Both the position numbers and the translations under genes were made by a program. 64,000 nt of DNA from Tubulanus polymorphus (lineage: Eukaryota > Animalia > Nemertea), in NCBI RefSeq assembly GCF_964204645.1, contig NC_134029.1, positions 11,806,850-11,870,849 on the forward strand, written 5' to 3'. Of this stretch, positions 11,754 through 59,597 are shown one piece after another; the first letter of the stretch is position 1, and each line of letters begins with the position of its first letter. The notes beneath the pieces were generated by a model. It was not told the origin of the DNA. It worked only from the letters and a program-made list of their open reading frames with translations, and searched no databases.

Positions 11754-11763
11754 TCACTAATAA

Positions 11764-12252: not shown

Positions 12253-12601
12253 ATCCATTTTTTTATTGTCCATTTTGGAATTTCAGAAGTATTTTGAATT
12301 TTAATAGCAGTAGTTTCAGAATTATTAATATCATAAATTTTATTTGATTTCTTATACCAACTACACCCAATCAAAATGAATACAATTACAAATCCAGTTG
12401 CAAAATATAGATATTCATCAAATATTCTATTATTAGAAGGAGTAGAAATAACAATATTTTCACCATTTTTTTAACATTTTTATTACTTATTTTTTCTTTT
12501 ACAGCTTTTTTATATTCTTGTGATTTAATTTCTAATTGCCGAGACCATTCAATTTGTTTCGGACTTCTCGGTTTTTTCTTCACTTCTTCCACCTTGCTCA
12601 T
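12253..12601 (-). pseudogene. Small membrane-anchored protein, homolog of 29927-30285
   Basis: KKPRSPKQIEWSRQL versus KKPRSEKQIKWAREL. Frameshifted; ends ...KMD*. Confidence 0.6.
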
Positions 12602-13090
12602 TTATTGTAGAAAAATATATTTCAATATTTGAAAATGTTATAACTCCAGTTGATAATAATGTCGTAAATCCACCTAATTGAAATGATAAATATCCAATCC
12701 ATTTATTTAATTCAGTCATAACTAAATAATCATTTTTTAAATCGGAATATAATCTATTTTCATCTTCAATTGGTAGTATATATTTAAATAATTTACTATA
12801 ACCTTTTACTACATTTTCTGATATCGCGTCATTAATTCTAGCTGTTCTCGCAGTTTCATTAATCTTAAATGATCTAATAATTTCATCTGATTTTTACATT
12901 TCCCAGATGCTATTAATATTTCTAATTGATGTTTGCAGTAAAGATAATATTCATAATTATTATTTGTTGTAACATAATTTAAAGCACCATCATCTGGAGT
13001 TAATTTTGTTTCTGTTATTCCTAAATCATCTAAAGTTTTTTCAATTGGAACATCACTATTTCTAGATTTTATTTTCTTTTCACCTCCCAT
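12602..13090 (-). pseudogene. Conserved Polinton hypothetical protein, homolog of 29359-29934
   Basis: IEKTLDDLGIT...EYYLYCKHQLEILIASGKC; downstream DLKNDYLVMTELNKWIGY after a frameshift/deletion. Confidence 0.7.
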
Positions 13091-13119
13091 TTATATAACA
13101 AACAAATTAGTTGTGTTGT

Positions 13120-13386
13120 TGCAACTAGAATTCAACTAGAATATAACTAGAATTCAACTAGATTAACAAGCTAGTTGAAATATTGTTGTTTTTATTTATT
13201 TCTTGTGGAATTTTATTTGATTTTTGCTACTAACAACTAGAATTCAACTAGAATGTAACTAAAAATATACTAGATTAACAAGCTAGTTGAAATATTGTTG
13301 TTATTTATTTATTTTTTTGTTTCAACTGCCAATAACAAAAATTTACTAGAATGTAACTAAAATATACTAGATTAACAAGCTAGATG
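13120..13386. repeat. Intergenic tandem repeats in Polinton 1
   Basis: Three copies of actagattaacaagctag plus multiple caactagaat units. Confidence 0.7.
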
Positions 13387-13389
13387 AAT

Positions 13390-13730
13390 TTAAATAAATT
13401 CATATTTAAATGGGTGTTGTGATCGAAATAGTAATTTTGATCGTTTATTATTTTTCAATTTATCCATATATTCGTTATGTAAATCATGTGGAATAATATC
13501 ATTTTCCTCAAGTGCATTTTTCATCGATTTCCTATCTTTATTGTGGAATAAAACTAAAAATCTAATGTTTTCTCTAAAATCTTTAACAATTGAATTATAT
13601 TTTTGATTTAAAACCCATGTTGTTATCCCAAAATGTCTCCCAGAGAAAGCTAAATAGCATAACTCACTTTCTATCACTTTTGAATCATGTAAATTTGCAC
13701 AATCATCTATGATAAAGAATGTATTAGATC

Positions 13731-13738
<8 letters not shown>
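13390..13738 (-). pseudogene. A32/FtsK-like packaging ATPase, C-terminal half only
   Basis: YKGSNTFFIIDDCANL (Walker B)...SGRHFGITTWVLNQKY. The Walker A half is missing at the (AT)n tract. Confidence 0.85.

Positions 13739-13796
<58 letters not shown>
13734..13796. repeat. (AT)n microsatellite
   Basis: Pure TA run. Confidence 0.95.
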
Positions 13797-13801
<5 letters not shown>

Positions 13802-14505
13802 ATTTTTTTCTTTTAATAGTTTTTGTTTTTAATACTTTTTCAATTTTATATTCTTGTTCTAGATTTTCAGTAGTTAAACTCAATTCTTCTTCATAAAAAT
13901 ACCCATCAACATCTTCACCATCTAAATCTTCTAATTTATAGACATATGGTTTTTTGTTATAACCTTTTTTATTTTATATATTTCCCTAGTAAAATTTCGA
14001 TCGTATCCTTTGTCAAATATCTTTTTATACTTGGAAATTCTAACATTTTGACCAACTTTAAATTTAGGTTCACCAAAATCATCTACAAGAAATGCCCCAT
14101 ACAAGTTATTCCAAACAATTTCAGCATTTTCAGGTTTTCTAGCATCAATAGGTTTCATTCCAATAGAAGAATGATAAGAATTATTATAACCTTCTATCAA
14201 TTTTGGTAAAACATCAATCCATTTAAAAGTATTATTTGCTGTAAAATATTTCCACATTCTTGTTCTTAATGTTCTATTAAATCGTTCAACAACTGCTGCT
14301 TTTTTATCCGATTTTGTTGAAAAATATTTAATATTATGATTATGTAAGAGTTCATGAACAAGTGAATTATCAAATTCTTTTCCATCATCAAATTGTATTT
14401 TTTCTGGTTTTAGTTTATCATCCGAAAGTAATTTTCTTAAAACATTTGATGTTTGTACAGCATCTTTTCTATAAAGTGGGAAGCTCCATACATAACGACT
14501 AAAAA

Positions 14506-17484
14506 TGAAAGGCTGAATCCAAGAACATGTCTATCGCACTTTTGAGCCCAAACGTCTACTTTTACTTAGTAGCCACTTGAGAACAATAAGCAATTAACGA
14601 TATCAGCTACTTTTCCAGTAGTATACATTTCAAAACAGTCACTCTGAAATAGTATTCCTTTCAATTCGGTTGGTTTTCTATAGTAACTGTTTCGAAGAGT
14701 CTACTATTGAAAAGTGACCATTTTAAAACATCTGGTTTCGATAGTGCACACTAGCAGTAGAGGTGACTGTAAAACCACCCGTCTGTCAACAGTGACTTTG
14801 TGATAGTAACTCTTACCGTAGCAGCTACTCTCAAAACACATCGTTTCTAAAAGTCAACTATTGAATAGTGACCATTTGAGATCACTTGCCAGATTCTCTG
14901 TTATAAATACACTGTAGCAACATATGCTTCAGATTTGCAGTGATACGTGACAATATAAACATACTGAAAACTCTACTCATGCTATAGTTTGGGGTATAAT
15001 TCTATTTTGAGTGACTCAGTTAAGATCTGAAGATATTGTAGATACTCTGTGAGGATGTGAAATGTGACGATCGATTCCCAACTCTTACCAATAAAAGTCG
15101 AAATTGGAGTTAAATTTGTTTCCAAATTGTCAATAGTTATGTAGTGTTAAAATAAATCGAAATTTCCTTCTTTTCATGGCAATATGATTTAATGCCGACA
15201 AATGCAGCTATTTTCAAGCATGGGTCTGCATTTATTTTTGGTATATTCTTAGATTAAAAGCGCAATCATAGATTCAGGCTATAACCTCTCATTATTGAAA
15301 TGGTGGTTTATTTTCAATGGGGGCCTGGATGTCTCTGCATCTTAAGATGTGCATTTCGGAGTGTTCGAATTTCCCTGAAATCATTGATCTTTTTTTAAAC
15401 AAAATATGCCATATCCGTGTGGATTTTAAACATTCTAAAGAAATCATCTAAATTGAGCCCATATTTGATCAAATCTTTTAAAAGAAACTTTGTATGGTAT
15501 TCAAGATTTCATTTGGATTACGGTAACGGCCTTTGGTGATCGTCACCGGGGTCATGAATGAAGAAATCCCGTAATAGAATTTTAAATATGATAAAATTTG
15601 TTAAAGGTGAAACCGCAACGTTTCGACTGTTGACTAACAGCAATCATCAGGTAGAACGTAGACATTTCTAGTGATAAGGGCTTTTAGTCAGATGGCTGTC
15701 AGTCAACAGCCGAAACGTTGTGGTTCAACTTTAATCAATTTCATGATACAAAATTCTGTTGCGGAATTTCTTCATTTATCTACAGTTAACACGGTTTAGA
15801 GTACTTTATTCGACTTCTTCGGGTCCTGTAGCCGTTAAGATCTAAAATTATTTACTTTTCGGCACAGAAGGGATATACAACCGTGTTGCTCCCTATGAGA
15901 GGGATTCCCTCTATATCTGCACCTTAAACCGGTACCTTTGTTGGTTCTAGCCCGCATTCGCTTCCAAATTCAAGTATTGGTAACGTTGGTTTACGATAAT
16001 TTGAGAAAAAGAGTTTAGTTGGAGGAAACTGATGATTATCTTATAATTCAGCCATTCATTGGTTCATCGATTCAGAAAAATAAAATAAAGTCTCATAGAG
16101 ATATTGCGGTGCTAAGTTTATTACTATTAAGAGGTAATTACTTTTGGTTCGTAGTCTTTTGGTGGTTAGTGCAGTTAGTTCATTCGTTCATCAATCACTG
16201 TCTAGTTAGCCTGTGTAATTGACCTGCTGACCGATAGCTGCTGCTGGGTTTTTGATAACCTATATAAACAATTTACTCAACTAAGTAGGAAAGTATGTGA
16301 AACTGAAATTACAGCCTCATTTCTTTCACTTCTTAAGCCAAACGAAGTATTCTCTATCAAATGAAATTGCTGATTTCAAAATTACGTGAACATCTCAACA
16401 CTCAACTCTTATACGCTAATCCTTTGATCTTTTATAATAAGTTGGTAATTTCATTTCAACCAAACCGTATAACTACGAAACAAGATTTTGATTAGGGTAT
16501 CACTTCTAGCAAGCGATAAAACGATTCAATATTCATCAATGAACAAGCAGAGAACAGCGTGACAAAGTGAACATCACATGGATTACTTAAAAATCGTTTG
16601 TATCGAAATAAACAATAAATTCAAGGTTAATTCTAAGTATTTTAGATACATTTTTTTCATAATTAATTTTATGAACATATGATTTTATTTGTATATTCCT
16701 CTCTCATATACCCTCAAAAACAAATTAAGCCTAAAAGACAAATTTATTTCTTGTCTTTCTTTTCTACAAAATCAAAGATTTATAATCGAAAATGTAAAAC
16801 AAAAATCTTAAAATTCTAAAGATTCTAGGACTGGCACTATATTTTAGTATTAATGGATTCAATCAATGATGATGATATATGAATCAATAGTTTTCCTATT
16901 GGATATTGCCATTTTGTTGAGCGTAATATAATTTAGGGGATTCTTGGCAACTCAAAAACTTTGATTTTCTATTCACAGAACTGTATTCAAAGCATACAGA
17001 GTTCTGTATATAAAGCATATGGGGTTTAATAGTACCTTTGAACCTGTCACGTATCACTGCAAATCTTTAACAGCTGCTGCTATTTTGAACAGGAAATTAC
17101 CTTGCCATCTCAAAATGGTCACTTTTCAATAGTTGACTTTTAGAAACGATGTGTTTTGAGAGTAGCTGCTGCGGTAAGAGTTACTATCACAAAGTCACTG
17201 TTTACAGGCGGGTGGTTTTACAGTGACCTCTACTGCTAGTGTGTACTATCGAAACCAGATGTTTTAAACTGTTCACTTTTCAATAGTGGACTCTTCGAAA
17301 CAGTTACTATAGAAAACCAACCGAATTGAATGGAATACTATTTCAGAGTGACTGTTTTGAAATGTATACTACTGGAAAAGTAGCCGATATCGTTAATTGC
17401 TTATTGTTCTCAAGTGGCTACTAAGTAAAAGTAGACGTTTGGGCTCAAAAGTGCGATAGGCATGTTCTTGGATTCAGCCTTTCA
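14506..17484. mobile_element. About 3-kb non-coding DNA transposon with about 375-bp TIRs, copy 1
   Basis: TGAAAGGCTGAATCC...GGATTCAGCCTTTCA ends. 2-bp AA duplication deduced from the integrase reading frame (DIFSRY). Confidence 0.85.
15613..15654 (-). ncRNA. Degenerate Penelope-type minimal hammerhead motif inside the TIR element
   Basis: cuac-CUGAUGA-uugcuguu-aguc-aacaguc-GAAAC-GUU-gcgg, within an inverted repeat at 15558-15775. Confidence 0.5.
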
Positions 17485-17862
17485 AATATCAATCATATTC
17501 AATATCCACCAATAATCATCATCATCTTTCTTAACATTTTTCATATCAATTAAATCTCCTTGCCACTGTTGATCTACATAACTTACCATAGTTTTACGAG
17601 TTTTATATTTTCTAACAATTTTTTTATGTGTTGTATATGTTGGCTGTTCTAACATAAAATCATTTATATCTTTATATTTAACTAAATTTTGTGGGATTAT
17701 CTTATCTAATTTATCTTGTTTTACTTGACGCCATATATTTTTGGTAGAAGAATAAGCAACCGAACTCTCAGGGTTGTAATATAAATTTCTTAAATATTGT
17801 TCTTTAGTATTAGGAGTTTTTTTACCACCCATTTATATATCGTTAATTTTAACTTAATATTT

Positions 17863-19111
17863 CTAATATTGAATACTATCTAATTGAGAATTTATAATAT
17901 TTAATTGCGCGTCAGATATAAAATAATTGTGCATTTTGAAATTTTTGATTCCTTTCTTCTTTTTCATGAATAATTGTATCCCATCTTTAGTATTCTGCAG
18001 CTTTTTTTCCAGAACCATGTAATGAATTATCCTCTGTTGTTCTTAAATCTAACCATAGTGCATATTTATTACCGGTATAATAATCAATTTGATTAATATT
18101 ACAATTTTCAGATGATTTTATTTTTTCATTCATAAAATGTTTTCTAATTTCTGGCCATTGATCTATCATTCTCATTCCTAGACAAAATATTTTATTTGCT
18201 ATACCTTCAATTGGTTTTTCTACTTTTGATATTTCAGGATTATAATAATCATCAACATTTATTGCGCCATTAGAATATGTTGCAATGGTAAAAAATATCA
18301 ATGCGCCGTTTATAGATCTTCTTGGGAAGTTAATATTCTCATTAATTACTTCATCATTTGCATTAATAGTTACAGTTTTAAATTTATCAATATAATCATA
18401 TAATAATGAAAATCCTTGATTGTATTGAGTTTGAATCATGCTAGCAATATGTTCATCAGTTACTGAATCATATTCTAAACATATATTCGATAATTTATAA
18501 CCCATATCTTTAACAACGCTAGATAAAACAATTTCATTAACGGGAGCAAATGTTATTTCGAATATAATATCTTCTTGAATTGCGTATTTATATAAAGGTG
18601 CATTATTATTTATCAATTCAAAATCTAATGGAATTTTATGTTTGCTTCCATAAATCTTTTTGATCAAATTATCTGCGGTACGAGTTACTATTGCGTCATT
18701 AGCTCCTGATCTTAATTTATTTTGGTTTTCTGATAGGATGATTTGAAATATAATATTATTTCTATTTTCTTTAGTTAACCATAAATCTTTGTAATGCATA
18801 AATAAATTATAATCATCTAATGAGAAAACTGTTTCCGGGCCAATCTTTTTAGTTAATTTTTTAATCAAATATCTTCCAACATTATCAACAACATAATTAT
18901 TATTATTACCATTTACATTTATATCAGCCGATAAATAAATACTATTTGGAACATAAAAAGTATTTTGATTTAATCTCGGGATTCTTACATATAAAGTTTC
19001 ATCAGGATTAATATTAGAAGGATTATGAGTAATTATATGATGAGATCTTTCTGCTTTAATAGCATTAGATATTCTTGAATTCTTAGAAGGATTGATATAA
19101 CTCCCACTCAT
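17863..19111 (-). pseudogene. Major capsid protein (double jelly-roll/hexon-like), frameshifted near the C-terminus
   Basis: 374-aa ORF with ITHNPSNI...LYVRIPRL, IPLDFEL, LSNICLEYD, ALWLDLRTTEDNSLHGSG. The tail (NTKDGIQL...DAQLNI...QY*) is in other frames and is intact in the paralog at 36856-37167. Confidence 0.8.
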
Positions 19112-19131
19112 TTATTTAACAAAAAAATTAA

Positions 19132-19446
19132 TTATTTATTTTGTATCATATTCACTAACCCAAAAATAATTGCACTTACAACTGTAATTAAAAATAAAAT
19201 AACATGTTCAGCAGCAAAGTTAAGAATATTCCCAGCAGATTTTAAAACAAAACCCACAATCGATGCAATAACACCAGGTAAAGCTGCAGCAGATTTTTTA
19301 GATAGTTCCCATAAATATTTTGCTAATTTTTTTAAACCATCCTTAACTTTATCTTGTATAGAATTATTATATTTTTATTAAAATCTATTGCAGGAATATT
19401 ATATTTAATTGATTTATTATATTGGAAAGCTTTTGGAAACCCCATT
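19132..19446 (-). pseudogene. Degenerate membrane protein fragment
   Basis: VKDGLKKLAKYLWELSKKSAAALPGVIASIVGFVLKSAGNILNFAAEHVILFLITVVSAIIF; early stop after the ATG. Confidence 0.5.
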
Positions 19447-19461
19447 TATATAATTAAAAAA

Positions 19462-19896
19462 TTAATAATTTATTAATTCTTTTAATAATTTATCTTGTTC
19501 TTCAACTGTAATATTACCATTTAAACTTATTATATAATCTAGTGTATTTTTTAATTTATTAATTTCTTTTATATTAGATTTAATTTTTTCTTTATTACTT
19601 TTTATATTTAATTTTGAACTCATACCAGTTAAAACACTTGATGATAATCCTAGCACGCCAATTGATATAGCTAAAGGTGTTAATGGACTGAATATTGCTA
19701 AAAATGTTATTACAGAACTAATTGTAACTGAACCACTGATAATAAAATAATATATAATTTTACTTTTTAAATATTTTTTCTTTTTTATCTTTAAGTCACT
19801 TTCAAATTCTAATATTTGTTTTTCTAAATATTTTTTTGATTTAGTTTTATTTATATCATGAGGAATAATATCAATATTATCAACTTTATCATCTAT
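19462..19896 (-). pseudogene. Two-TM coiled-coil protein; start codon apparently mutated ATG to ATA
   Basis: Frame is open from TAAATA-GATGAT at 19896 through IYFIISGSVTISSVITFLAIFSPLTPLAISIGVLGLSSSVLTG into ORF 19462-19656. Confidence 0.55.
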
Positions 19897-19915
19897 TTAT
19901 TTAGAAAAGAAATTA

Positions 19916-20338
19916 CTAATTAGTAAATTTATATGCTACAAATAAAACAATAACAGTTCCACCTAAAATCCATATTATTTCATATTCCTGTTGTTCTTTA
20001 CTTGGTGTATAATAATCTGATAATTTAGATTTGTATAGATGTAATTTTTCTTTATTGGTTACCGCGTTATATAAACTCATTGCATCATCGACTGATTGAA
20101 AATCTCTATGTGAAATCTTCTGATCATATAATTCTTTGTTAATATAATCCATGTAATTTTGTCTCTTTTCTCTATATTCTTCTGCTGCTTTATTGTATTT
20201 CTCTAATGCTAAGTTATGTCTTTTTTGTTCTGATAATGAACCACTTTTATCAATATGCTTAAATAAATAACCACCACATGTAAATGCTAAAGCGTTAACA
20301 ATTGCCGATCCTATAATAGTTATAATTGCAGAAGCCAT
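19916..20338 (-). CDS. Conserved Polinton small membrane/coiled-coil protein
   Basis: Open 140-aa ORF MASAIITIIGSAIVNALAF...EQKRHNLALEK...C-terminal TM; TAAATG start. Confidence 0.7.
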   Translation of the reverse strand: MASAIITIIGSAIVNALAFTCGGYLFKHIDKSGSLSEQKRHNLALEKYNKAAEEYREKRQNYMDYINKELYDQKISHRDFQSVDDAMSLYNAVTNKEKLHLYKSKLSDYYTPSKEQQEYEIIWILGGTVIVLFVAYKFTN

Positions 20339-20361
20339 TTATTTAGTAAAATAATTACGCA

Positions 20362-20583
20362 TTTATATAGGAAGAATATATTTTTGTTTTTCCAAATAAT
20401 CAATTGTTAAATTAGATAAAGTAACTGCTAACGTTAATTTTAAAATATCATTTATATCAAATCTATCAACATTAACACTTCCCATTTTAAATACTTTTTT
20501 AATACCATTGTATAACCAACAGTTCCCACTGATAATAATGCTCCATTATATAAACCAGTTATTATCCACTTATTATCACTCAT
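20362..20583 (-). pseudogene. Small hydrophobic protein with a frameshift in an A-run
   Basis: MSDNKWITGLYNGALLSVGTVGYTMVL / FKMGSVNVDRFDINDILKLTLAVTLSNLTIDYLENKKYILPI*; TAAATG start. Confidence 0.5.
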
Positions 20584-20940
20584 TTATTTATCAAAACAAT
20601 TACTATCTTCAAAATATGTATTTATCTTAGTTATAATTATTTCAACATTTATAGAATCATTAGTTTCATTTTCATATATTTCAGTTATTATTCTTTTAAT
20701 ATCATCAATGGTAAAATCTTCATCTAATTCATAAAATCTTAAAGATTCTCTAATTAAATTAGTAATCTTTTCTACATTTAAAGTTTCTTTATCTATTGTT
20801 TTTTCAAACTCAAATGTTGTTTCATTAGAAAATGCAATATTTTTAATATGTGTAATTACATCAGTAATGTTAAATTTCATTTCTTTCTCATGTTTAAAAT
20901 CAAATCCAAAACATATACTCGGTCCTACTGTTATATTCAT
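20584..20940 (-). CDS. Acidic hypothetical protein of the Polinton
   Basis: Open 118-aa ORF abutting its neighbours, preceded by taattttttcactataTAAATATG. Confidence 0.55.
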   Translation of the reverse strand: MNITVGPSICFGFDFKHEKEMKFNITDVITHIKNIAFSNETTFEFEKTIDKETLNVEKITNLIRESLRFYELDEDFTIDDIKRIITEIYENETNDSINVEIIITKINTYFEDSNCFDK

Positions 20941-20958
20941 ATTTATATAGTGAAAAAA

Positions 20959-21706
20959 TTACTCTTTACATCTTATAATTAATTCATAAATTACAGGAAA
21001 ATTATTTAAATCAATTAAATATCCATCATGATTTCTAAGTTCTAATCTAAAATTATTAAAATGAGGAATGCATGGTTTGAAATCACATTCTATTAAATTA
21101 TAATTTATTTGAGTTCCAAATTGTTTAACATTTTTAGTGGTAAAATATTTAGTATACTAGAACTACAAATTGTTTCTTTAGTTGCTTCGAATGTTTTTGT
21201 AGGATCGATTAAATTGCAATAAATATATAAGTGTGTAAAAGGTATTATATTTGAGATGCCTTCTGCGCTTCCAGTAACTGTAAGCGGTTTAATTCCTAAC
21301 ATTTTAGCCATTGGTTTGTTTACCATAAATTTATGTTGTTCATCTTTATTCTTATCATATTAGTACTATCAATTTTATTAAATTTAATTTCAAATACAGA
21401 AGTGCCCCCGATTTTCAACCGAGCTCTTCTATTAATTTCCTGCGCTAATGATTCTAAATTATATAATCCTGGTTTTAAAAATAGATGAAACCATTTATCT
21501 TTATTTCTCATATAAATCATAAACCCTCTATGTTCAAAAGTTTTATCCGATATATTACAAAAAGAATTACATAAACTTACATTTACTAATTTTAAATCAA
21601 CACAATTCTTAAATTCTCTATCTAATTGTACTAGTAAATTATGTGATTTAGAATTTAACAGTTTTCTAGAATCAACAAATATTCTATATTCTTTTACTTC
21701 ACCCAT
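20959..21706 (-). pseudogene. Minor capsid protein (penton, single jelly-roll), two frameshifts
   Basis: IFVDSR...LVNVSLCNSFCNI...PGLYNLESLAQEIN / HLYIYCNLI / FRLELRNHDGYLIDLNNFPVIYELII, a typical penton motif order. Confidence 0.7.
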
Positions 21707-21775
21707 TTATTTATAGCACAAAAAAATTACCTCTCATCACTAAAAATTAATTTTAATAGAATTTTTCCTTAATAA

Positions 21776-22996
21776 ATGGATGAGAAGATACCATGTGAAA
21801 TTTGTGGTGAACTTCTAAGAAAAAGTAATATGGCTCGACATATGAAAAAAACATGATAAAAATTATAAACCCCCTAAAATAAACTGCCCAAATTGTAATA
21901 AATTATTCTCAAGAAATTATGTTAAAAAACATTCAGAGAAGTGTAAAATTAATGACACAACGGTTAATGTTGATAGTAACGAAAGTAATAGTAATTCTGT
22001 TGAAGTTGAATCTGAAATTATTTGGAAAAGACCTTTCTTATTCTATGATGAGGATAATATAAAAGATTATTTCTGTGAGCCTTGTCGAATAAAATATAGA
22101 CCTGAAAAATATAGATGATTGGGAGAATAATCAATTTCGTAAAGCACATATAGATAAAATTTCTAATAAATTTGAAACTGAATTCAATGAAAGAAAAAAT
22201 AAAATATGAGAAAACGTTGCCAGATAATGAAGAAACACTTAAAAAGTTGGAAAAACAATATAATGAATTAGTTAGAAAAACATATTATTGTAAATATTGT
22301 AAATTGATTAATACAACAAGTAATTCAAATCTACATAATAGGACAATAAAACATAAAGAAAACGTAAGAAAATACCAAGAGCTTAATGAAGATCTATTAC
22401 CAAGAAATGATAGAAAAAAATGCCCACAATGTATTTATGGGCACTTAAGACAAGAAGGTCCTGTGATATTTTGTAATGAATGTGGATGGCAAAGGAATTT
22501 ATGGGGTGATGAAAAAACTAGAGATATTCTTATAGAACCAAAATCAAAATATCTAGATGAAATTTTTAAGATATTTGCTATGGAAGATCATACACCAGAA
22601 TATAAGCAATGGCTTGAAAAAATGAAAATGATAGAAAATAAAAATGGTGAAATAACGAAAAAAGATATCATAAAAACAATTATTCCATCAACATTGAAAA
22701 TGTATTTATATCTATTATTTAACGATTATCATAAAAAACCTAAATTAACAGAAGAAGATATGGAAAATATAAAAGAAACATTCAAAAAAATATTAAGATA
22801 TTATGTGGATAATAGAATAACAGATTTAATTAATTATGAATTCTTTATAAATAAGATTGTTAATTTTTTAAACATCGATATTATAATTCCATTTGATGAA
22901 TTAACAAACAAAAAGAAACAAAGAGAGCGAGATGAAATGTGGTACAATATAGAACTTTATTTAAATGAGAAAAATGAAATGGAAGAACCTAAATAA
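21776..22996 (+). pseudogene. Zinc-finger protein with a C-terminal VLTF3 (poxvirus A2)-like late transcription factor domain; 5' part frameshifted
   Basis: N-terminal CEICG/CPNC fingers. ORF 22172-22996 has CPQC...FCNECG, PKLTEED...IKETF, LINYEFFINKIVNFL...LTNKKKQRERDEMW, matching the VLTF3 pattern. Confidence 0.6.
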
Positions 22997-23055
22997 TTAA
23001 ATAAAAATGAAGAAACCAGTAGTGATTTCGAGTATGATGATATTGATATTATGTT

Positions 23056-26000
23056 TTAATAACCATAAGGTAATGTTTTTATTCCATCACCCAAAATATA
23101 TCTTTTATCACCGAATGGATTTAAACTAGTTTTTTCAACTTCATTAATGTACATCTTGTGATCTTCTGATCTTAAACAATTCATTTTATGTTTCATTACA
23201 AATGAGTTATATAAACACTTTATATAATCTTGAAATTCTATATGTTTATCAACCACATGTTTTGTTATTCCATTTAACTTTTTAGCTTCATGATCTTTTG
23301 TTCTATAACTATACATTTTACTTCTTATCCCAACAAATTCAATCATTTCATCGCCCCCTAATTCATCTTTAAACTTGCCAGGAATCTTTTTACTATCGTT
23401 GCTAAATAGTTCATGATCTTTGGGATAATTGCTAAAATCAAAATGATGTTTTGATGTTTTTAAGTCTTTTGTTATGTCATTTGTCTTGATGTTTAGTATG
23501 TACGCATCAGTATTCCGGGCGATTAATGGAAATCCACAGTTAAATGTGCCATATTCAGTTGACAAATCATAAACATAATCTGATGGGTTATATATTTCGA
23601 ATAAATCTTTAAATTCTTCAGTTATTTCTTTTTCTGTATGCCTTAGATTAAAACAATTTGGCATAGATTTAATCAATCCAATATTCATATTAAAACCTAA
23701 TGAATTACATAAAGGATTCAATCCTGATATACCAACTTTTCCTTTTTGTACAAATGTTATTACTGGAGAACTCGTAAATTTTTTAGCACCATCAGCTGCG
23801 TAGAATCCAATGAAGAACCATTTTCTTAAATTATCTTTTGCATTTAATACATAATCTGGAACTATCTTTTCTTTTTTTGGAAGTATAACTTTTAACTATT
23901 GCATGAATATAGAATTCGTCATTATATTTTATAGCAAAATCTTTAGGGTTATTCACGAGTATTCTATAAACTGCTGATGATTTCACAACATCCATGATTC
24001 TAAATGTTTTATGTGAATAAACTTCTTCACAGTATTTCTTTATTCTTTCTAATAATTTCAAATCTTGATTACATAAATACCAACAATATTTATTGCCACT
24101 TACATAATTATACACACCTGCTGAACCATCACCCATGAAAAATCCTTTAATAAAATATTCTTTTTCTTCTAATGTTTCAGGTTCTATATTATAAGTATTA
24201 TCAATTATTTCATCAAATGACATATGATCCATTCTTTGGAAAAATCTTTTATGTAATAATTCATCTCCAATTTTTATATCAGTTGGTTTTATTTCATCAC
24301 CATTTCGTTTAATTAAACTATGATCTTCTGTAACATCTACAAACCCTAATTTAGTTCTAACTCTATAAATCTTTTTATTTGTTTTATGCCTAATTATATT
24401 CTTTAATTTTTTCCATCCATTTCTTGTCCAAACATCCATTAATCCATTTAATTGTATTAACTCTTTTTTACCATATAAAATATAAGATTTATTTTGTTTT
24501 GGAATTATTTCTGAAATTCTTCTTATCAATATTTTATCATTACATTTTAATAATTTTGGGGTGTCAGCTGTTACAGAATCAAAATATAAGATTACTATAT
24601 GTTTTTCCCTAAAAAGTGGTTGTAAAACATTATAATAAAATCATACATTAATAATTTTGATATTTCTAAAACAGTTGAACCAATGAATATAGGTTTATTA
24701 AATTTCATTGACGTTCTTTTTAATTTTACCGCGGTTAAATAATCTTCAAATCTTTTATTTCCTAAATGTCTAGGACTTGATTGTAAATGTCCTAATCGTT
24801 CAGAATTATCTACTAATTCAATATCATTTCTATTTCTAATATTTTCACATGTTTAACCATAAAAACTATTATTCATTAATTTGAAGAAATCTTTTTCAAA
24901 ATCTGTTTTTGATATGGTTCTCTGTTGAGTATTAAAATCTACATATTTTTCTAACCACTTCGATTGATTAAATTCAATATATCTATGTACTTTATTTGAT
25001 TTCATTCCTTGTTTTAGATAAAATTTTAACATTCTATAATGAACAATATAATTATATTTATCATTTTGTGTTAATATCAATTTTTTTGTAAAAACATGAT
25101 CTTTTGATTTTATTTTCTTCTGGTATTCACTTAAATAATTATCACCTACGGTTAAATGTTCTGGGCAATATGGTAAATTTCTTGTTTTAAACTTTATGTC
25201 ATCAGGATATTCTAAATCAAAAACAAAGAAATAACCAATCGGTGCTTCATCTTCTAAACTCATAATTGCGCTTTCCCAATTAGTTTTATCATCATTTTCA
25301 ACTTCTGTTAATATAAACTTTTTGTATGGTTGAGGTTGCATCATTGCCCAACCATATAAATTATTGGCGTCATTATATAATAATTTGTATTCATCATTTG
25401 CTTTAAAATACCTATCTCCCATAACACCACTAATTCCACCTCTAATTGATTTTTCAAATAATAAAACCATGTCTGGTTCTTTTAATAAATCTAATTCTAC
25501 ATTTGTATATTTCAAACCACATTGCCAAGTTAAACCAGGACTTGAATAACAATAACAGGGATCAACATTAAAATGATTCAAATTAACTTCTCTAAATTTT
25601 TCAAATATATCAGCCAATATCATAACATCTGATTTTAAGTATAAATCTACTAATTAACCATGATTTTTTATCTTAAAGTGATTCCAAATATTTAATGTTC
25701 TATTAAACACTTCATCTTTCACATACTCCTCTTTTAATTGATCATAAAATTGTTCTTTCAATAATTCTGTTACATTAAAATCATCATGTGTTTTATAAAA
25801 TGAATAAGGAATTGCGCCTTTATATCTCAATAATTTAAAATCTTGGTCATTTGGATAATATTGTCGAGTTATTATAAAATCATTATCAACTAAACGTTTT
25901 GCTAAATTATCTAATAAACTTGCTAGAAATCTATAAGAATCTAAAAATCTAATGCAACCAAATTGAAATAAAATATACTTTTCGGATGTCTTAGCTAATA

Positions 26001-28126
26001 GTTTAAAATCTTATTTTCTTACATTTGTACCATTCATAGCATTATATTCTTCTATTTCTTGATTAATTGCGCCCAATTTTCCCGATAATTGTTTTATAAA
26101 TAGATGGGTATCATAGCCCGATAAATTATGAAATAATTTTGGTACGAAATTAACTTTCTTAGCTTGTAAATTACAATCTTCATGAGCAGCTCCACGATAT
26201 TTTGAATTTAAATGATCATGATCTCTAACTTTTTCATCAAATGAATAAAAACGTTTTTCACAATAACAACAATGAATTGCATAATTAAAATCAATTTCAT
26301 CTTCTTTTGTCATAACTATTCTTTTATTTTTGTTTAATAATTTTGCAAAATCACTTTCTATTTCAATTATTTTGTTACAAAAATCATTAAACTCCATCTT
26401 CACCTCTAAGAGAAATATATTGACTTTCATATAATTCAGGATAATTTGATTTTATGTAAATTCCATAAGCAGCAGCTCTTTGATGAACTTTTTTAATTGT
26501 GTTTATAATTGGTGGATCTTGAATTATGTCTTCATTTAATTCATTTCCTTTATCCATTGATTTTAAAAATTGCTTTTTATTGTATATTTCTTTTCTATAT
26601 TGATCAGTTAATTCTTTATTCAACGATTCAAAATCCCCATAAATTACAAATGGAACAATATTTTTAAATTTATGATTAGTAAATTTCAACTTACAATCTT
26701 TTTTTGTTGGCATTATCAATTTACAAAAAATCTTTATTATCACATAATTCTTTATGTTTTAATAATGTATTCTCAGTCATAAATTTAGATAAACATTTTC
26801 TAAATAGATAAATTTTATGATGATGATCACTTTCTGTTCTAAAGAATAAATCAATTTGTTTTAACCACATATAATGTTCATTTTCATCTTTTTTGTAATG
26901 TAACAAATCTATAGCATTTTCATCATCATCATATTCTGTTAGATATAAAGCTTCTAATGTATAATCTTTAATATTTACACCTTTTGTCTTTGGTAATTGC
27001 ATTAATTCAAATACATTTATTTTTAAATTATTAACTTTTTCTATTTTAGGAATCATCTTTATAGTTACTGGATATTGATCAATTTTATATAATGTTTCAC
27101 ATTTCCGGTAATTTGTTATTCTAAATCTATGCGTAATATTTTCTGTTGGGTGTAAGCAACTAATAATTGACCATAGCAAACATGTATTATCTTCATTTTG
27201 AACATTTATTACTGCTTTTGTTGTAAATGGTAATTTGATATAACTTGATGCTTTAATATCCTTTTCTGTTGTAAAGTTTGAATCATTTTTAAACATTGTT
27301 TTACTTTTTGATGTTTTATTCATTTTTGTATTATAAACATTTAAATCTAAAAATATAATTTCATTCAATGTTAAACCAGAACCCTCAAAATATCTTTCTT
27401 CAATATGACGTTTAAATTCTTAAAATATTTTTTCTAACTTTTCGTTTATTTGTGTTTTTGAAATTATTTCTTCAGAGAGTGTTTGAATATTATAATCCAT
27501 TTTCTCTTCTGACTTTAAAAAACTTACTTTCCCAGAGATACTTATACAGAGATATTAATTAACATCTGTTATCAAATCTAGTATTTTTCCATTATTTCAT
27601 TAAATTTACTATAATCTTTTATTGTTGTACCTTTAAAAAATCTAAATATAATGGCTGCAGGACCAATTTTACTATGTAATGTTTCTAAAATTTCAATTGT
27701 ATCTTTTATTTCTAGTGAATCGATATAATTTCTAACATTTTCCATGTAAGGTTTATTTGAAATGGATTTAGTTTTTGAAGTTGGTTTTTTTACTTGTTGA
27801 GGTTTATCATCGAAATAATCTATTCCTAAAACATTATTACTCAAATTTTGATGGTGTTTTTGTGATTTGATATGTCTTTTATAATTCCTTTTTACTATAA
27901 ATTCATTACAAACTTCACATTTTATTTCATCCACATTCATATCATCTAATCGTTCTTTTCTTTCATTGGAATTTTCTGAAGTTTCAAAATCTATAACATT
28001 TTTTATATGATTTACGGTTTTTTCATGGTGTGTTTTATTAGATTTATCTATGGATTTTTTACAATATGGTCAATAATATTGGTTTTTAGCATCAATTTGT
28101 TCTGTATGTTGTTCACTCTCTCCCAT
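23056..28126 (-). pseudogene. Protein-primed family B DNA polymerase (pPolB) with N-terminal Zn fingers, an endonuclease VII-like insert and an intein; several stops and frameshifts
   Basis: ExoI IYGDFES, VRDHDH...YRGAAHEDCNL, ExoII FHNLSGYD, ExoIII YLKSDV, motif A DANNLYGWAM, motif B KLMNNSFYG*, motif C YFD|TDA, C-terminal GKFKDE, KMYSY, DKRYIL...TLPYGY. Confidence 0.95.
23512..24577 (-). mobile_element. Intein with LAGLIDADG homing endonuclease at the Pol-c site of pPolB
   Basis: Block A SVTADTPKLL, block B VDVTEDHSLI, LAGLIDADG motifs FIKGFFMGDG and FFIGFYAADG, block F YVYDLST, terminal N followed by +1 Thr. One frameshift at the homopolymer near 23875. Confidence 0.92.
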
Positions 28127-28133
28127 TTATAAG

Positions 28134-28202
28134 AAAAAAAATTACTTGTGGTGATGAGAGGTGTCTCGTACTCAGGTCTGAAAGCCCACTTTTCCAATTA
28201 CT
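28134..28202 (-). repeat. Right TIR of Polinton 1
   Basis: Reverse complement agtaattggaaaagtgggctttcagacctgagtacgagacacctctcatcaccacaagtaattttttt. Confidence 0.9.
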
Positions 28203-28354
28203 GACACGACTGTCACAACCGACCTACGCGCTCTTGCGACTGGCAGAAACTAGTTGCACACAATCGTATCGCAACCGACTTGCACCGAAACTTGCGATGC
28301 AACGCGAGGATCGCATCGCGTCACAAGGCCGACCTACGTCCGGCTTTAAGTTAC

Positions 28355-29358: not shown

Positions 29359-29934
29359 ATGTCAAAGAAATCTGATAAAAATAATACCGATATTGAAAAG
29401 ACAATTGATGATTTAGGTATTACAGATAATAATGATACAGTTATTTCTAATTGTGCTCAAAATAATTATAATATTGATTTTGAATACTATTTAACATGTA
29501 AGCACCATCTTGAGTTACTAATTGCTAGCGGCAAATGTAATGAGCTTATTGGCAAAATTATAACTTTTCAAGAACTAGATGCCATGAAACCAGATAAAGT
29601 AATAAAACATTTCAAAATATATGAAGAAGCTAGATTAGCTAGAATAAATGACTCTATAAGTGATGGAATAGTTAAATGTTACTCTAAATTATGTAACCGG
29701 ATTATACCAATTGATGATGAAAATAAATTATATACTGATTTAAAAAATGATTACTTAGTTATGACAGAACTACAGAAATGGGTCGGGTACGCTTCATTTC
29801 AATTAGGAGGAATAATGACATTGATTTCTACTGGCGTAATAACATTTTCTAACATCAGACCTATAGAATATAAAGATAAAAGTAAATCAGAAGATATTGA
29901 ATTAGAACAAAAATTAACTAAAATAAATGAGTGA
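29359..29934 (+). CDS. Conserved Polinton hypothetical protein
   Basis: Open 191-aa ORF, TAAATG start, homolog at 12602-13090. Confidence 0.75.
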   Translation: MSKKSDKNNTDIEKTIDDLGITDNNDTVISNCAQNNYNIDFEYYLTCKHHLELLIASGKCNELIGKIITFQELDAMKPDKVIKHFKIYEEARLARINDSISDGIVKCYSKLCNRIIPIDDENKLYTDLKNDYLVMTELQKWVGYASFQLGGIMTLISTGVITFSNIRPIEYKDKSKSEDIELEQKLTKINE

Positions 29935-30285
29935 TGATATTAAGAAGAAACCTAGATCCGAAAAACAAATTAAATGGGCTAGGGAATTAGGTAAAAGATC
30001 TTCAGAATTAAAAAGAGCTAAGAAAAAGAAATTAAATGATATAAATGAATCACAGAAATTATCTGATATTAATTCAAATGATAATCCATCTGATTATTCT
30101 AATGCTGGAAGTAATAATAAATTATATATAACAATTGGATTAGTAGCAGTTATTATATTCTCTGGTGTAATATATAAATTTGAATTTAATAACAATAATG
30201 ATTCCGATGATAAACCTATTATACCAGAAAATAAGTCAAATGATAAAACCATTGAAAATAAACCAAGATTATTATTAATGGATAA
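29927..30285 (+). CDS. Small membrane-anchored protein (stop lost, reads through into the integrase)
   Basis: KKPRSEKQIKWARELG...LYITIGLVAVIIFSGVIY...LLMD; the homolog ends MD*. Confidence 0.55.
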
Positions 30286-30292
30286 AAATAAG

Positions 30293-31375
30293 ATGAAAAT
30301 GGAACAATATTTAAGAGATTTATATTATAACCCAGAGAGTGAAGTATCATATTCAAGTGTTTCAGAATTATGGGATAAAATTAAATCTGATAAAGAAAAT
30401 ATAAAATATAGTGAATTAAGATTATGGTTAAAAAATCAACCAACATATCAAATCCATAAGAAAATGGATAAAAATTATTTAACGAGAAAAGTTATGGTTT
30501 CATATATCGATCAACAATGGCAAGCAGATTTAATAGACATGAAGAACTTAGAGGAACACAACAAAGGATATTTCTGGATATTAAATGTTATAGATATATT
30601 CAGTAGATACGCATGGAGTATTCCAATCAAAAATAAAACTGGTATAGAAATTACTAATGCCTTTAAATCAATATTTAAAGAAGCTATTCCAGGTAAGATA
30701 CAATTCGATGAAGGTAAGGAATTCTATAATAAACATTTTAAAAGATTATTATCTGATAACAGTATAGAATATTTTTCAACGCATTCAGATAAAAAAGCAT
30801 CTATTACGGAAAGGTTTAATAAAACATTGAAATCTAGAATGTGGAAATATTTTACAGCTAATGAAACATATGAATATATCGATGTGTTAGATTATTTAGT
30901 GAAAGGTTATTATAATTCTTAACATAGTTCTATAAATATGAAACCTATACAAGCTAGAAAAGAAGATAATTCAGAAATAGTTTGGAATAATTTATATGGA
31001 GCATTTGTTACACATGATTTCGGAGAACCTAAATTTAAGATAGGACAACATGTGAGAATATCTAAATATAGAAAAACGTTATATAAAGGTAATACAAATT
31101 TTAGTGAAGAAATATTCAAAATTAAAAAGATAATACTTACTAAACCATTTGTTTATAAATTAGAAGATTTAAAAGATGAAGAAATATTAGGTTATTTTTA
31201 TGAACAAGAATTATCACTTGTACCAAATCCAGATGAAATAGAATACAAAATACAAAAAGTATTAAAAACAAAAACTCTTAAAGGAAAAAAGTATTCTTTA
31301 GTGAAATATAAAGGGTATGATGATAAATTTAATGAATGGATTTTATCTAGTAAAATTAAAAGAATAAATGAATGA
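30293..31375 (+). pseudogene. rve integrase with C-terminal chromodomain; one in-frame stop at 30920
   Basis: WQADLIDM, IDIFSRYAW, QFDEGKEF, ERFNKTLK, EYKIQKVLKTK...LVKYKGYDDKFNEWI. Confidence 0.9.
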
Positions 31376-31976
31376 AGATTTATTTATATTTGAACCGCAT
31401 AATATGTTAGTTACTGGCGTAACCAACTGTGGTAAAACACATTTCATATTAGATTTATTGGAAACTATTTATAAGAATCATTTTGATAATATAATATTAT
31501 TCTGCCCTACTAATGAAATGAATAAAACATATAATAGAGATATAGTTAAGATAAAAAAGTTTATTATATTAGATCCTAAAACAGTGAAAGAAAATTTAGA
31601 TAATTGTATTAAAATAGCAATCGATATTTATAAAGGACCAAATACATTATTTATTATAGATGATTGTGCTAATTTACATGATTCAAAAATTAGAGCAAGT
31701 GAGTTATGCTATTTAGCTTTCTCTGGGAGACATTTTGGGATAACAACATGGGTTTTAAATCAAAAATATAATTCAATTGTTAAAGATTTTAGAGAAAACA
31801 TTAAATTTTTAGTTTTATTCTACAATAAAGAAAGAAAAATGCAACAATCATTGGAAGAAAATCAAATTATACCTACTGAATTACATGATGAATATATGAA
31901 TAAATTAAAAAGTAATAAAGGTTCAAAATTATTACTGAGGCTTCAATATCCATATGAATATAAATTTATAAAATAA
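31368..31976 (+). CDS. A32/FtsK-like genome packaging ATPase
   Basis: Open 202-aa ORF: Walker A GVTNCGKT, Walker B FIIDD, GRH and hhhhQ motifs. Confidence 0.9.
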   Translation: MNEDLFIFEPHNMLVTGVTNCGKTHFILDLLETIYKNHFDNIILFCPTNEMNKTYNRDIVKIKKFIILDPKTVKENLDNCIKIAIDIYKGPNTLFIIDDCANLHDSKIRASELCYLAFSGRHFGITTWVLNQKYNSIVKDFRENIKFLVLFYNKERKMQQSLEENQIIPTELHDEYMNKLKSNKGSKLLLRLQYPYEYKFIK

Positions 31977-32307: not shown

Positions 32308-32470
32308 ATTTATAATAATTACGAATATAAATTATTAAATGAAATATATAAAAATGAATAAATTATATGTTTTCACTCAATAGAAATAAAAATAGATTAT
32401 GTTATAACTATTTCTATACTTCAATTAATAATTTATATTTTTAATTTTTATAAAAACTAATTTATATATG

Positions 32471-35400
32471 TGAAAGGCTGAATCCAAAAACATGTCTATC
32501 GCACTTTTGAGCCCAAACGTCTACTTTTACTTAGTAGCCACTTGAGATCAATAAGCAATTAACGATATCGGCTACTTTTCCAGTAGTATACATTTCAAAA
32601 CAGTCACTCTGGAATAGTATTCCTTTCAATTCGGTTGGTTTTCTATAGTGGCTGTTTCGAAGAGTCTACTATTGAAAAGTGACCATTTTGAAACATCTGG
32701 TTTTGATAGTGCACACTAGCAGTAGAGATGACTGTAAAACCACCTGCCTGTTAACAGTGACTTAGTGATAGTAACTCCTACCATAGCAGCTACTCTCAAA
32801 ACACATCGTTTCTAAAAGTCAACTATTGTAAAGTGACCATTTTGAGATGGCGTGGTTATTTCCTGTTCAAAATAACCACATCTGTTAAAGATTTGCAGTG
32901 ATACGTGACAGGTTCAAAGGTACTGTTAAACCCTATATGCTTTGTATTCAGAACTCTGTATGATTTGAATACAGTTCTGTGAATAGAAAATCAAAGTTTC
33001 TCAGATGCTAAGAATCCCCTAAATTATATTACGCTCAACAAAATGGAAAACTATTCATTCATATAACATCATCATGGATTAAATCCATTAATACTAAAAT
33101 ATGGTGCCAGTCCTAGAATTCTTAGAATTTTAAGATTTTTGTTTTACATTTGCGATTATAAAACATTCTGGTAGACAAAAAAATAAATTTGTCTATTAGG
33201 CTTAATTTGTTTTTAAGGGTATATGAGAGAGGAATATACAAATAAAATCATATGTTCAAAAAAATGAATTACGAAAAAAATGTATCTAAAATACTTAGAA
33301 TTAACCTTGAATTTATTGTTTATTTCGAAACAAACGATTTTTAAGTAATCCATGTGATGTTCACTTTGTCACGCTGTTCTCTGCTCGTTCGTTAATGAAT
33401 ATTGAATCGTTTTATCGCTCGCAAGAAGTGATACCATAATCAAAATCTTATTTCGTAGTAATACAGTTTGGTTGATTTGAAATTACCAACTTATTATAAA
33501 AGATCAAACAATTAGCATATAAAAGTGTAGTGTTGAGATGTTCACGTAATTTTGAAGTCAGCAATTTCATTTGATAGAGAAAACTTCTTTTGGCTTAAGA
33601 TGTGAAAGAAATGCGATAGGCTGTAATTCTAGTTTCACATACTTTCCTACTTTGTTAAGTAAATTGTTTATATAGGTTATCAAAAACCCAGCAGCAGCTA
33701 TCGGTCAGCAGGTCAATTACACTGGCTAACTAGACAGTGATTGATGAACGAATGAACAAACTGCATTGGCCACCAAAAGACCACAAACCAGCACCGCAAT
33801 ATCTCTATGAAACTTTATTTCAAGGTGCCAATATAATAACATGCCAAAATGTACGGTGTTTGAACTTCGCTGAATCGATGAACCAATGAATGGCTGAATT
33901 ATAAGATAACTATCAGTTTTCTCCTACTAAACTCTTGTTCTCAAATTATCGTAAACCAACGTTACCAATACTTGAATTTGGAAGTGAATGCGGGCTAGAA
34001 CCAACAAAGGTACCGGTTTAAGGTGCAGATATACAGGGAATCCCTCTCATAGCGACCAACACGGTTGTATATCCCTTCTTTGCCGATTAGTAAATAATTT
34101 TCGATCTAAACGACTACAGGACCCGAAGAAGTCGAATAAAATACTCTAAACCTTGTTAACTGTAGATAAATGAAATTCCACAATAGAATTTTGTATCATG
34201 AAATTTATTATAGTTAAACCACAACGTTTCAGCTGTTGACTGACAGCCATCTGACTAAAAGCCCTTATCTCTAAGAATGTCTACATTCCACCTGATGATG
34301 GCTGTTAGCTGTAGATAAATGAAGAAATTCCACAATTGAATTTTGTATCATGAAATTTATTATAGTTAAACCACAACGTTTCAGCTGTTGACTGACAGCC
34401 ATCTGACTAAAAGCCCTTATCACTAGGAATGTCTACATTCCACCTGATGATGGCTGTTAGTCTACAGTCAAAACGTTGCGGTTTCACCTTAACAAATTTT
34501 ATCATATTTAAGATTATATTACGGGATTTCTTCATTCATGACCCCAGGGACGATCACCAAAGGCCGTTACCGTAATCCAAATGAAATCTTGAATACCATA
34601 CAAAGTTTCTTCTATTAAATTCGATCAAATATGGGCACAATTTGATGATTTCTTTAGAATGTTAAAAGTCCACATGGATAAAGCATGTTTGAAAAAAATC
34701 AATGATTTCGCGAAATTAGAATTCAGGGAAATTCGAACACTCCGAAATGCACATCTTAATTTAAGATGCAAAGACGTCCAGGCCCCCGTTGAAAATAAAC
34801 CACCATTTCAATAATGAGAGGTTAGCCTGAATTTATGATTGCGCTTTTAATCTAAGAATTTAAATCAAAAATTAATGCAGACCTATGCTTGAAAATAGCT
34901 GCATTTGTTCAAATTGAATTCTTTATTCAATTATATCGCCATGAAAAGAAGGAAATTTTGATTTATCTTAAAAACTACATAACTATTGACAATTTGTAAA
35001 CAAATTTAACTCCAATCTCGACTTTTATTGGTTAGAGCTGGGAATCGCTCATTAAATTTCACATCCTCAAAGAGTATCTACAATATCTTCTTATCTCAGC
35101 TGAGTCACTCTAAATAGAACTATACCCCAAACTATAGCGTGAGTAGAGTTTTCCGTATATTTATATTGTCACGTATCACTGCAAATCTGAAGCATATGTT
35201 GCTACAGTGTATTTATAACAGGGAATCTGGCAAGCGATCTCAAAATGGTCACTTTTCAATAGTTGACTTTTAGAAACGATGTGTTTTGAGAGTAGCTGCT
35301 ATGGTAGGAGTTACTATCACAAAGTCACTGTTAACGGGCGGGTGGTTTTACAGTCACCTCAACTGCTAGTGTGGACTATCAAAACCAGATGTTTCAAAAT

Positions 35401-35609
35401 GGTCACTTTTCAATAGTAGACTCTTCGAAACAGCTACTATAGAAAACCAATTGAAAGGAATACTATCCCAGAGTGACTGTTTTGAAATGTATACTACTGG
35501 AAAAGTAGCCGATATCGTTAATTGCTTATTGTTCTCAAGTGGCTACTAAGTAAAAGTAGACGTTTGGGCTCAAAAGTGGGATAGACATGTTCTTGGATTC
35601 AGCCTTTCA
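32471..35609. mobile_element. About 3.1-kb non-coding long-TIR DNA transposon, copy 2 (opposite orientation)
   Basis: Same ends as 14506-17484, TG duplicated on both sides, interior is the reverse complement of copy 1, with an about 150-bp tandem duplication at 34160-34460. Confidence 0.85.
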
Positions 35610-35715
35610 TGTATGTACTAGACGTATGAGTAAGAAAGTAAGAATTCTTACTTTCTTGGATTCTTGGATTCTTACGTACGTCTAGTACATAGATATAAAA
35701 ATAGTTTTACAATAA

Positions 35716-36823
35716 TCATTGTAATTTTGTTTCTAATAAATTTATAAAGTCATCTTGGTTTATATCGAATTCATAATAATGCTTAGGTAGATTTATTAAT
35801 TTTAGTTGAGCCATCAGATAATAATAATTAGTATGTATCTTACCTTCTTTTTTTAATTTTTCAAAGTATTCATCAAAATCAAAATCAAAATGATATCCAA
35901 AATTTTTTATTAGATAACTTAAATCTATTTTTCTCGAATACAATAATTTATATATTTGCCTAGGATTATCTTCTGCATAAGCTAATAATTTATCAAATAA
36001 CAACTTATAGAATATATAATATTGTTTAGTTTTAGGATCAAAATATTGATATATTTCTTTGGGTTATTTAACAATGGTATCATACTTTCATTTTTATAAA
36101 CATTAATTAGATGTAATTTTGATTTATAATGAGTATTTTCATCAACAGGTTCAATTTTCTTATTATAATATTGACACGTTTTATTTCTTTCTATTACTTC
36201 AAATTTCTTTTCATGTTCTTCTAACTCCCTTTCATTTTCTATATGTCCCTGAGATTTTTTATGCTTAGAAAAATTACTTTTAGAAATATCTAAATTACAA
36301 ACATTACAATGTTTTTAAGAATCATCATTTGTTTCATTATCATTAGTTTCAATTGTATCAAATTATCCGTTATATTATCTATGGTATCATTAGTTTCAAT
36401 TGTATTAACATTATCTATGATATTATTATTCTTTTCTTTTTCTACATGTTTCTTTGATTTCTTATGGGTTGCCCAATTTTTATATGATATATATTTCTTA
36501 CATACGTCACAATATTTTTCATTTGTCTTTTTGGTTTTGATATCAAGTTCAATCTTATCATCATTCGATGTAGAAGGTATAACATTATCTTCTATTTTTG
36601 TTTCAATATTATCTTCTATTTTAGATTCAATATTATCTTCTTTTTTAGGTTCAATATTATCTTCTATTTTAGGTTCAATATTATCTTCTTTTTTACTTAT
36701 TCTATATTTGAATTGATTAAAGTATTCTCCAAAATACTTACTATATTCATAAGGTATTATATAATATATATCTGATATCATTTCACTTGGACTTTGTATT
36801 TCATATAACTTACCTGCCTCCAT
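35716..36823 (-). pseudogene. Zinc-finger protein with 8-aa tandem repeats, frameshifted
   Basis: TAAATG start, (KIEDNIEP)-type repeats, YCDVCKKYISYKNWATHKKSKKH and a second CNVC finger in another frame; C-terminal ORF 35716-36003. Confidence 0.55.
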
Positions 36824-36855
36824 TTATTATATAAATTTTTATTAAAACTAAAATT

Positions 36856-59165: not shown

Positions 59166-59597
<432 letters not shown>

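Follow-up and report, generated by a model that had tools for sequence, protein, structure and literature searches.

Introduction

Inteins at the Pol-c site of family B DNA polymerases (PolBs) are known from archaea and giant viruses, where they split catalytic motif C as YxD|TD; for the mimivirus PolB intein the splice-junction residues and the site were described by Ogata 2005 (PMC549080). Gallot-Lavallee 2023 (PMC10710043) also reported viral-like DNA polymerases with inteins in Klebsormidium, Tetrabaena and a labyrinthulomycete, in each case on a nuclear scaffold. Inteins are given as absent from metazoan genomes in the relevant statement of a review (PMC8529194), and a eukaryote-wide survey, as presented in its text, reports viral inteins from NCLDV families and unclassified viruses only (PMC5784728).

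Polintons or Mavericks (adintoviruses) are described as elements with TIRs, a 6-bp TSD, a protein-primed PolB (pPolB), an rve integrase and an A32 ATPase, and two divergent PolB classes are found among them (Starrett 2021, PMC8502044; Barreat 2021, PMC8097293). HNH and VSR nuclease domains have been seen inserted in Polinton pPolBs (Jeong 2023, PMC10748475; Krupovic 2024, PMC11071308), and one sentence of the latter paper suggests that these insertions result from intein invasions; neither account of them describes a Hint domain, LAGLIDADG or a motif-C site. The word 'intein' is absent from the main text of Jeong 2023, which surveyed about 22,000 pPolBs, and from the main texts of PMC8502044 and PMC8097293. 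No earlier account of a Polinton with a Hint/LAGLIDADG intein was found in the literature on inteins together with Polintons, Mavericks or adintoviruses, in whose supplements some could be listed, and none is described in the available text of PMC12220804, PMC3671162, PMC11131425, PMC10643990, PMC13768754, PMC5718144 or bioRxiv 10.64898/2026.10.13.758929.

Here we analyse an intein in a stretch of 64,000 nucleotides, referred to below as the window. Like the archaeal and giant-virus Pol-c inteins it occupies the YxD|TD site, is about 350 aa long and has Ser1, a terminal Asn, a +1 Thr, the block B Thr/His and a LAGLIDADG domain, the mimivirus side of this comparison being by description (PMC549080). 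It differs from them in residing in a protein-primed Polinton polymerase, in its nuclear integration and in forming part of a clade of its own. As in the cases of PMC10710043, the intein has been brought into a eukaryotic nuclear genome within an endogenous viral polymerase gene. Those cases, however, concern algae and a protist with giant-virus-type genes, in an account that, as far as its text goes, leaves Polintons unmentioned, whereas the carrier here is an integrase-encoding multi-copy element in what is likely an animal. The window element itself resembles the Polintons of PMC8502044 and PMC8097293, as described there, in its TIRs, 6-bp TSD, pPolB, integrase and ATPase, although its end reads AGTAAT as against the (AGT)2 quoted for vertebrate elements.

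Results

The element and its chromosomal setting

The element spans 11,679-28,202 (16.5 kb), with TIRs of about 90 bp and ends reading AGT...ACT. Its features outside the polymerase gene, and those of the surrounding host DNA, are as follows.

11,495-11,672, no strand: left half of an interrupted host MITE, with a terminal inverted match to 28,330-28,350
11,679-11,774, plus strand: left TIR of the Polinton, starting AGT and preceded by the TSD GACACG (11,673-11,678)
13,390-13,812, minus strand: fragment of an A32-type packaging ATPase (Pox_A32, E 0.0026)
13,931-17,832, minus strand: integrase of retroviral type, interrupted at about 14,505-17,489 by the insertion of a 3-kb element
17,987-19,111, minus strand: 374-aa ORF, a possible major capsid protein by size and place alone
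28,116-28,202, minus strand: right TIR of the Polinton, ending ACT and followed by the TSD GACACG (28,203-28,208)
28,209-28,350, no strand: right half of the host MITE, flanking the Polinton's right TSD
59,166-59,590, minus strand: last exon of host GOLPH3, with the spliceosomal acceptor TTTTAG

The rve match of the integrase (E 1.8e-4) covers 13,934-14,530, with an N-terminal piece at 17,482-17,832, and the ATPase fragment shares 85% DNA identity with the stronger ATPase of a neighbouring element. The 374-aa ORF matched no Pfam or PHROG family and its single-sequence fold reached a pLDDT of 29; among the scanned ORFs there was no match to a protease gene. Carrying a protein-primed PolB, an rve integrase, an A32 ATPase, TIRs and a 6-bp TSD, the element is identified from its sequence as a Polinton, and these three genes are all decayed.

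Other mobile DNA is visible in the window. The 3-kb element, with TIRs of about 450 bp, is present in two copies (14,505-17,489 and 32,466-35,610), each in or beside a Polinton, and it is the first of these that divides the integrase gene. At 29,359-31,976 (plus strand) and 35,609-37,294 (minus strand) lie the remains of one or two additional related Polintons, with an integrase-chromodomain, an A32 ATPase and a segment that shares 90% identity with the region of the 374-aa ORF. Positions 3-308 (minus strand) hold part of the N-terminus of a further Polinton-type polymerase, which has about 63% identity to P0435/P0437. An ORF at 5,209-6,195 (minus strand), without a Pfam match, looks by eye like the C-terminal RT and GIY-YIG of a Penelope-like retroelement. 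AT-rich virus-like ORFs, also without Pfam matches, lie outside the main element at 9,504-10,190 (plus strand), where an HNH-like motif can be seen by eye at the end, and at 60,333-60,992 (minus strand).

The GOLPH3 exon matches a PDB GOLPH3 chain with an E-value of 1.8e-67, compared with 3.9e-20 for Vps74, and since it is far nearer to the animal protein than to its yeast counterpart, the host is very likely an animal. From this and the sequence at the element's borders, integration of the Polinton in an animal chromosome is very likely. We consider it very improbable that the contig is chimeric or the host something other than an animal. About 31 kb separate the GOLPH3 exon from the element, which would leave room for a chimera, but the 6-bp TSD GACACG is perfect on both sides, the MITE is cleanly split so that its halves flank the element, and repeat families are common to both sides of the Polinton. 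A non-animal host is opposed by the GOLPH3 exon itself.

Anatomy of the motif-C insert

The polymerase gene is divided into three parts, all on the minus strand.

24,578-28,069, minus strand: N-extein of the protein-primed PolB, interrupted by three stops and four frameshifts; the homologs P0001 and P0127 carry PF03175
23,512-24,577, minus strand: Pol-c-site intein with a Hint domain and a two-motif LAGLIDADG endonuclease, assigned by sequence, profiles and the fold of the homolog P0299
23,056-23,511, minus strand: C-extein, beginning with the +1 Thr (TDAY) and 79% identical to the intein-less P0433

A preliminary description of the window had proposed a homing intein here, and its reading of the residues stands. 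Motif C is split such that ILYFD is followed by SVTADTP at 24,577, and PLIARN by TDAY at 23,512. Ser1, the TEDH of block B, the VYDL of block F, the terminal Asn and the +1 Thr are all found, together with two LAGLIDADG-like motifs, FIKGFFMGDG and FFIGFYAADG, which retain acidic catalytic residues. The presence of a Hint domain is borne out by the N-half of the insert, which passes the TIGR01445 intein_Nterm profile with 25.0 bits against a cut-off of 24.5; its match to PF14890 (E 2.7e-5) is below the cut-off of that model, and its best PDB sequence match is PI-PkoII (E 1.8e-4). No Pfam or PHROG family was matched by the C-half alone, and the LAGLIDADG region in the window halves gave only a weak PHROG match. 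The expectation that the exteins would join into a Polinton polymerase is likewise upheld: the intein-less P0435 aligns to 24,575 and restarts at 23,514, so that the exteins join exactly at the site, and P0433 also joins both of them exactly at YxD|TD of PolB motif C.

The penultimate residue is Arg, not His, as the preliminary description had it. In class 1 inteins a penultimate His is usual but not obligatory. It is present in 18 of the 23 complete Polinton inteins, while among 176 non-Polinton relatives 76 have His, 69 Lys and 3 Arg (100/176 without His). The Arg was considered as the mark of a new splicing class and this was rejected, residues other than His being common in the intein group. 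Several departures from conserved intein columns are seen in the window copy. Taking junction residues, profiles and extein alignment together, the insert is confirmed as a class 1 intein of the Pol-c allele with a predicted homing endonuclease.

The reading frame through the window intein and its host protein is interrupted. The one frameshift that had been placed near 23875 is indeed a single break, located between about 23,875 and 23,900 beside a T run, but it is not the sole damage to the polymerase. Four others lie at about 24,640, 26,390, 26,727 and 27,585, and in-frame stops occur at 26,013, 25,656 and 24,855; the polymerase is therefore dead whatever the status of the frameshift in the intein. 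The N-extein also shows a weak HNH/EndoVII-like match. To judge from its five frameshifts, three stops and split integrase, the window copy is an inert fossil. The frame through intein and polymerase is uninterrupted in P0001, P0004, P0282 and others.

The intein in other Polinton polymerases

The best homologs of the insert are other protein-primed PolBs with the same intein, namely P0001, P0003/P0124 and P0004. P0001 is an intact protein of 1,693 aa that combines PF03175, LAGLIDADG_3 and the intein; it is 59% identical over the window intein and its PF14528 match is above the cut-off (30.1 versus 22.5). In pooled similarity and profile searches, with a Polinton-clade intein called at 55% or more identity to a reference, the intein was present in 74 of 359 matched proteins. 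The great bulk of these carriers (67/74) belong to a single expanded clade; their contigs reach about 1 Mb, and they may derive from just one assembly or a few. The intein is present, often intact, in at least five lineages of Polinton polymerase: window/P0001/P0328/P0334; P0124; P0287/P0297; the P0282/P0289/P0286 clade; and P0004. Both LAGLIDADG motifs are retained in nearly all 23 complete Polinton inteins. The fold predicted for a natural homolog, P0299 (pLDDT 92.5), matches the HEN-bearing inteins TliVMA (E 6e-18), PI-PkoII and PI-PfuI as well as I-DmoI, and when used to search viral folds it matched Megavirus PolB at 28% identity.

None of the IMG/VR loci L001-L101 had a match to a protein-primed PolB. 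Among 11 loci found by scanning the metagenome collection for motifs, one was of Polinton type (L188), and the INPHARED phages gave two weak partial matches.

The cluster of P0299, with 55 members, includes several intein-only ORFs, 362-365 aa long, which have a Met of their own, about 11 residues before the intein and 4-7 after it, and in some cases TNS instead of TDS behind the intein. Either decayed polymerases or a free-standing family of inteins/endonucleases may be represented here.

Relatives outside Polintons and the donor of the clade

Over the whole intein the window copy is 40-59% identical to other Polinton inteins and at most 42% identical to outside relatives, the nearest named one being the ChoanoV1 PolB intein (37% to P0001). 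For the intein tree, 40 rows were selected on BLAST rank and spread out of a set of 99 inteins 315-380 aa long, which left out shorter, longer and four mis-parsed inteins; two partial rows were added. IQ-TREE runs replaced a first FastTree run that had set the Polinton clade beside long branches. The Polinton inteins form one clade with support of 100/99 (6 rows), again with 14 rows, and with 100/100 (7 rows). Its sister, at 93/82 (not starred), is a group of inteins ending in G(F/Y/T/S)PLIVKN or a close variant, which holds inteins of giant-virus PolBs (P0014, 99.6% identical to a GVMAG locus, and ChoanoV1 P0351) and of T4-like phages. When rooted on nine archaeal Pol-c inteins, the Polinton clade nests among the inteins of viral RNA-primed PolBs (95/94).

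Giant-virus PolB inteins had been named as the source of the insert, and both the sequence searches and the trees do place them among its outside relatives. What is not supported is the direct jump into this element by homing during co-infection. Such a recent arrival from a giant virus would sit with the identity of up to 44% to PolB inteins of giant-virus MAGs over the window N-half, and with the fact that the polymerases closest to that of the window (66-82%) are all intein-minus. Against it, the nearest relatives of the window intein are the inteins of other Polinton polymerases, and it pairs with P0001 at 99/97 inside a Polinton-only clade. In the window copy no compositional sign of recent acquisition was found when the GC of the intein (0.26) was compared with that of the exteins (0.25-0.27). 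A direct jump is largely refuted for the window copy and we find it scarcely credible, but the clade as a whole may have originated in that way.

For the whole clade the trees favour, but fall short of proving, a donor among the large DNA viruses. A bacteriophage or other non-NCLDV donor, or a transfer that ran outward from Polintons, is in our view unlikely. In keeping with a phage donor, the T4-like PolB inteins P0012, P0152 and P0157 have about 39-40% identity and the shared end G(F/T/S)PLIVKN, and in the AU test a tree with all other viral inteins together was not rejected (p 0.158); the archaeal root joins long branches. Yet all three of these phage inteins are nested within the giant-virus-type set, and the non-Polinton viral inteins stayed together as one group in 0 of 200 bootstrap trees, which argues against an outward transfer or a non-NCLDV source.

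Three further observations concern these relatives. The position of P0012, P0152 and P0157, T4-like phage PolBs with Pol-c inteins, suggests an exchange of inteins between phages and giant viruses. Related inteins are found in viral topoisomerase II (P0006, P0058, P0061 and others) at DQD|TDG, a site resembling that of motif C. Two MAG contigs binned as Bacteroidales (L192, L193) encode giant-virus-type PolBs with Pol-c inteins and are probably mis-binned viral DNA.

Age and probable mobility of the intein

Identities of intein and extein run parallel (55/59, 74/68 and 78/72%) and the two trees largely agree. Because the intein tree largely mirrors that of the polymerase, the intein appears to be an old resident of Polintons; the transfer into Polintons is, on these comparisons, ancient and not specific to the window copy.

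This parallel is also what would be expected of a single entry followed by vertical inheritance, in which the intein splices without homing and minus alleles arise by repeated precise loss. P0124 (plus) and P0127 (minus) would fit as well, their exteins being 99.2% identical and their flanks identical; without flank differences, gain is not separable from precise loss in this pair. In a polymerase tree with 36 rows chosen by hand (11 plus, 25 minus), however, intein presence needs 10 changes, at least 9 of which are forced by supported branches, so that vertical inheritance needs about 10 precise losses; clustering on this tree is no greater than in shuffles. Plus and minus alleles also coexist among close relatives. 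Among the 15 members listed of the 121 in the P0003 90% cluster there are 5 plus, 1 minus and 9 that do not span the site, and among the 15 listed of the 136 in the P0282 90% cluster there are 7 plus, 6 minus and 2 that do not span it.

In the P0282 family the exteins of plus and minus alleles are 97.4-98.7% identical, and the fixed differences that separate 7 plus from 3 minus alleles, 11 in number, all fall at -6 to +44. Nine of the 11 are within 30 residues of the site in an extein of 1,191 residues (binomial p 1e-10). A sister allele of the family has the minus state at 9 of the 11 differing positions, and five of the plus states match more distant intein-bearing families, a polarity towards gain that speaks against loss. 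The flank cluster fits what homing with co-conversion predicts for a gain, at the protein level and possibly for one event. Preservation of both LAGLIDADG motifs similarly speaks against splicing without homing. Nor can vertical inheritance account for P0004, the extein of which is unalignable with other Polinton polymerases (E 0.11 or worse) while its intein is 39-46% identical to Polinton inteins and nested among them; the combination implies a jump between polymerase classes. From PF03175 scores the window PolB would belong to the Beta class and P0004 to the Alpha class. Vertical inheritance alone is, on balance, distinctly unlikely, and maintenance by homing is preferred.

The empty alleles of the P0282/P0289 clade are unusually varied in motif C (YMDTDS, YIDTDA, YFDTDA, YGDTDA, YTDCDS); escape from the endonuclease could be the cause.

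Discussion

In class 1 inteins Ser1 makes the attack, the +1 Thr takes over and the terminal Asn cyclises. By this chemistry the intact Polinton inteins would splice themselves out and restore the YxD-TD motif of the polymerase. The LAGLIDADG domain would cut an unoccupied motif-C site in a further Polinton copy of the same cell, and repair of the break would copy the intein and flanking sequence into the cut copy. More tentatively, the family may go back to a single ancient entry into Polintons, with the RNA-primed PolB of a large DNA virus as its source. That virus was probably a giant virus, if so, and the family may later have crossed between two Polinton polymerase classes. The window copy would have reached the host genome as cargo of an integrating Polinton and then decayed. 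We hold it to be probable, with good confidence, that the window intein is a decayed member of a Pol-c family of Polinton PolBs, the intact members of which are predicted to splice and are likely maintained by homing. The broader proposition, that animal nuclear Polintons harbour a living intein family of giant-virus origin that splices, homes and crosses classes, with one lineage having free-standing intein-only ORFs, seems to us evenly balanced.

An insertion in motif C would be tolerable only if it splices, and intact multi-copy alleles would thus imply splicing where the elements replicate. The intein allele itself is a known one; the class of polymerase that hosts it is new, and the nuclear genome in which it sits is very likely that of an animal. 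The Polinton intein family would be an exception to the absence of inteins from metazoans, though one carried in viral cargo and not in a host gene. It would also record directly that genes have passed between large DNA viruses and Polintons, at a catalytic motif common to both, and the plus and minus alleles within one family would allow homing in a eukaryotic nucleus to be tested directly.
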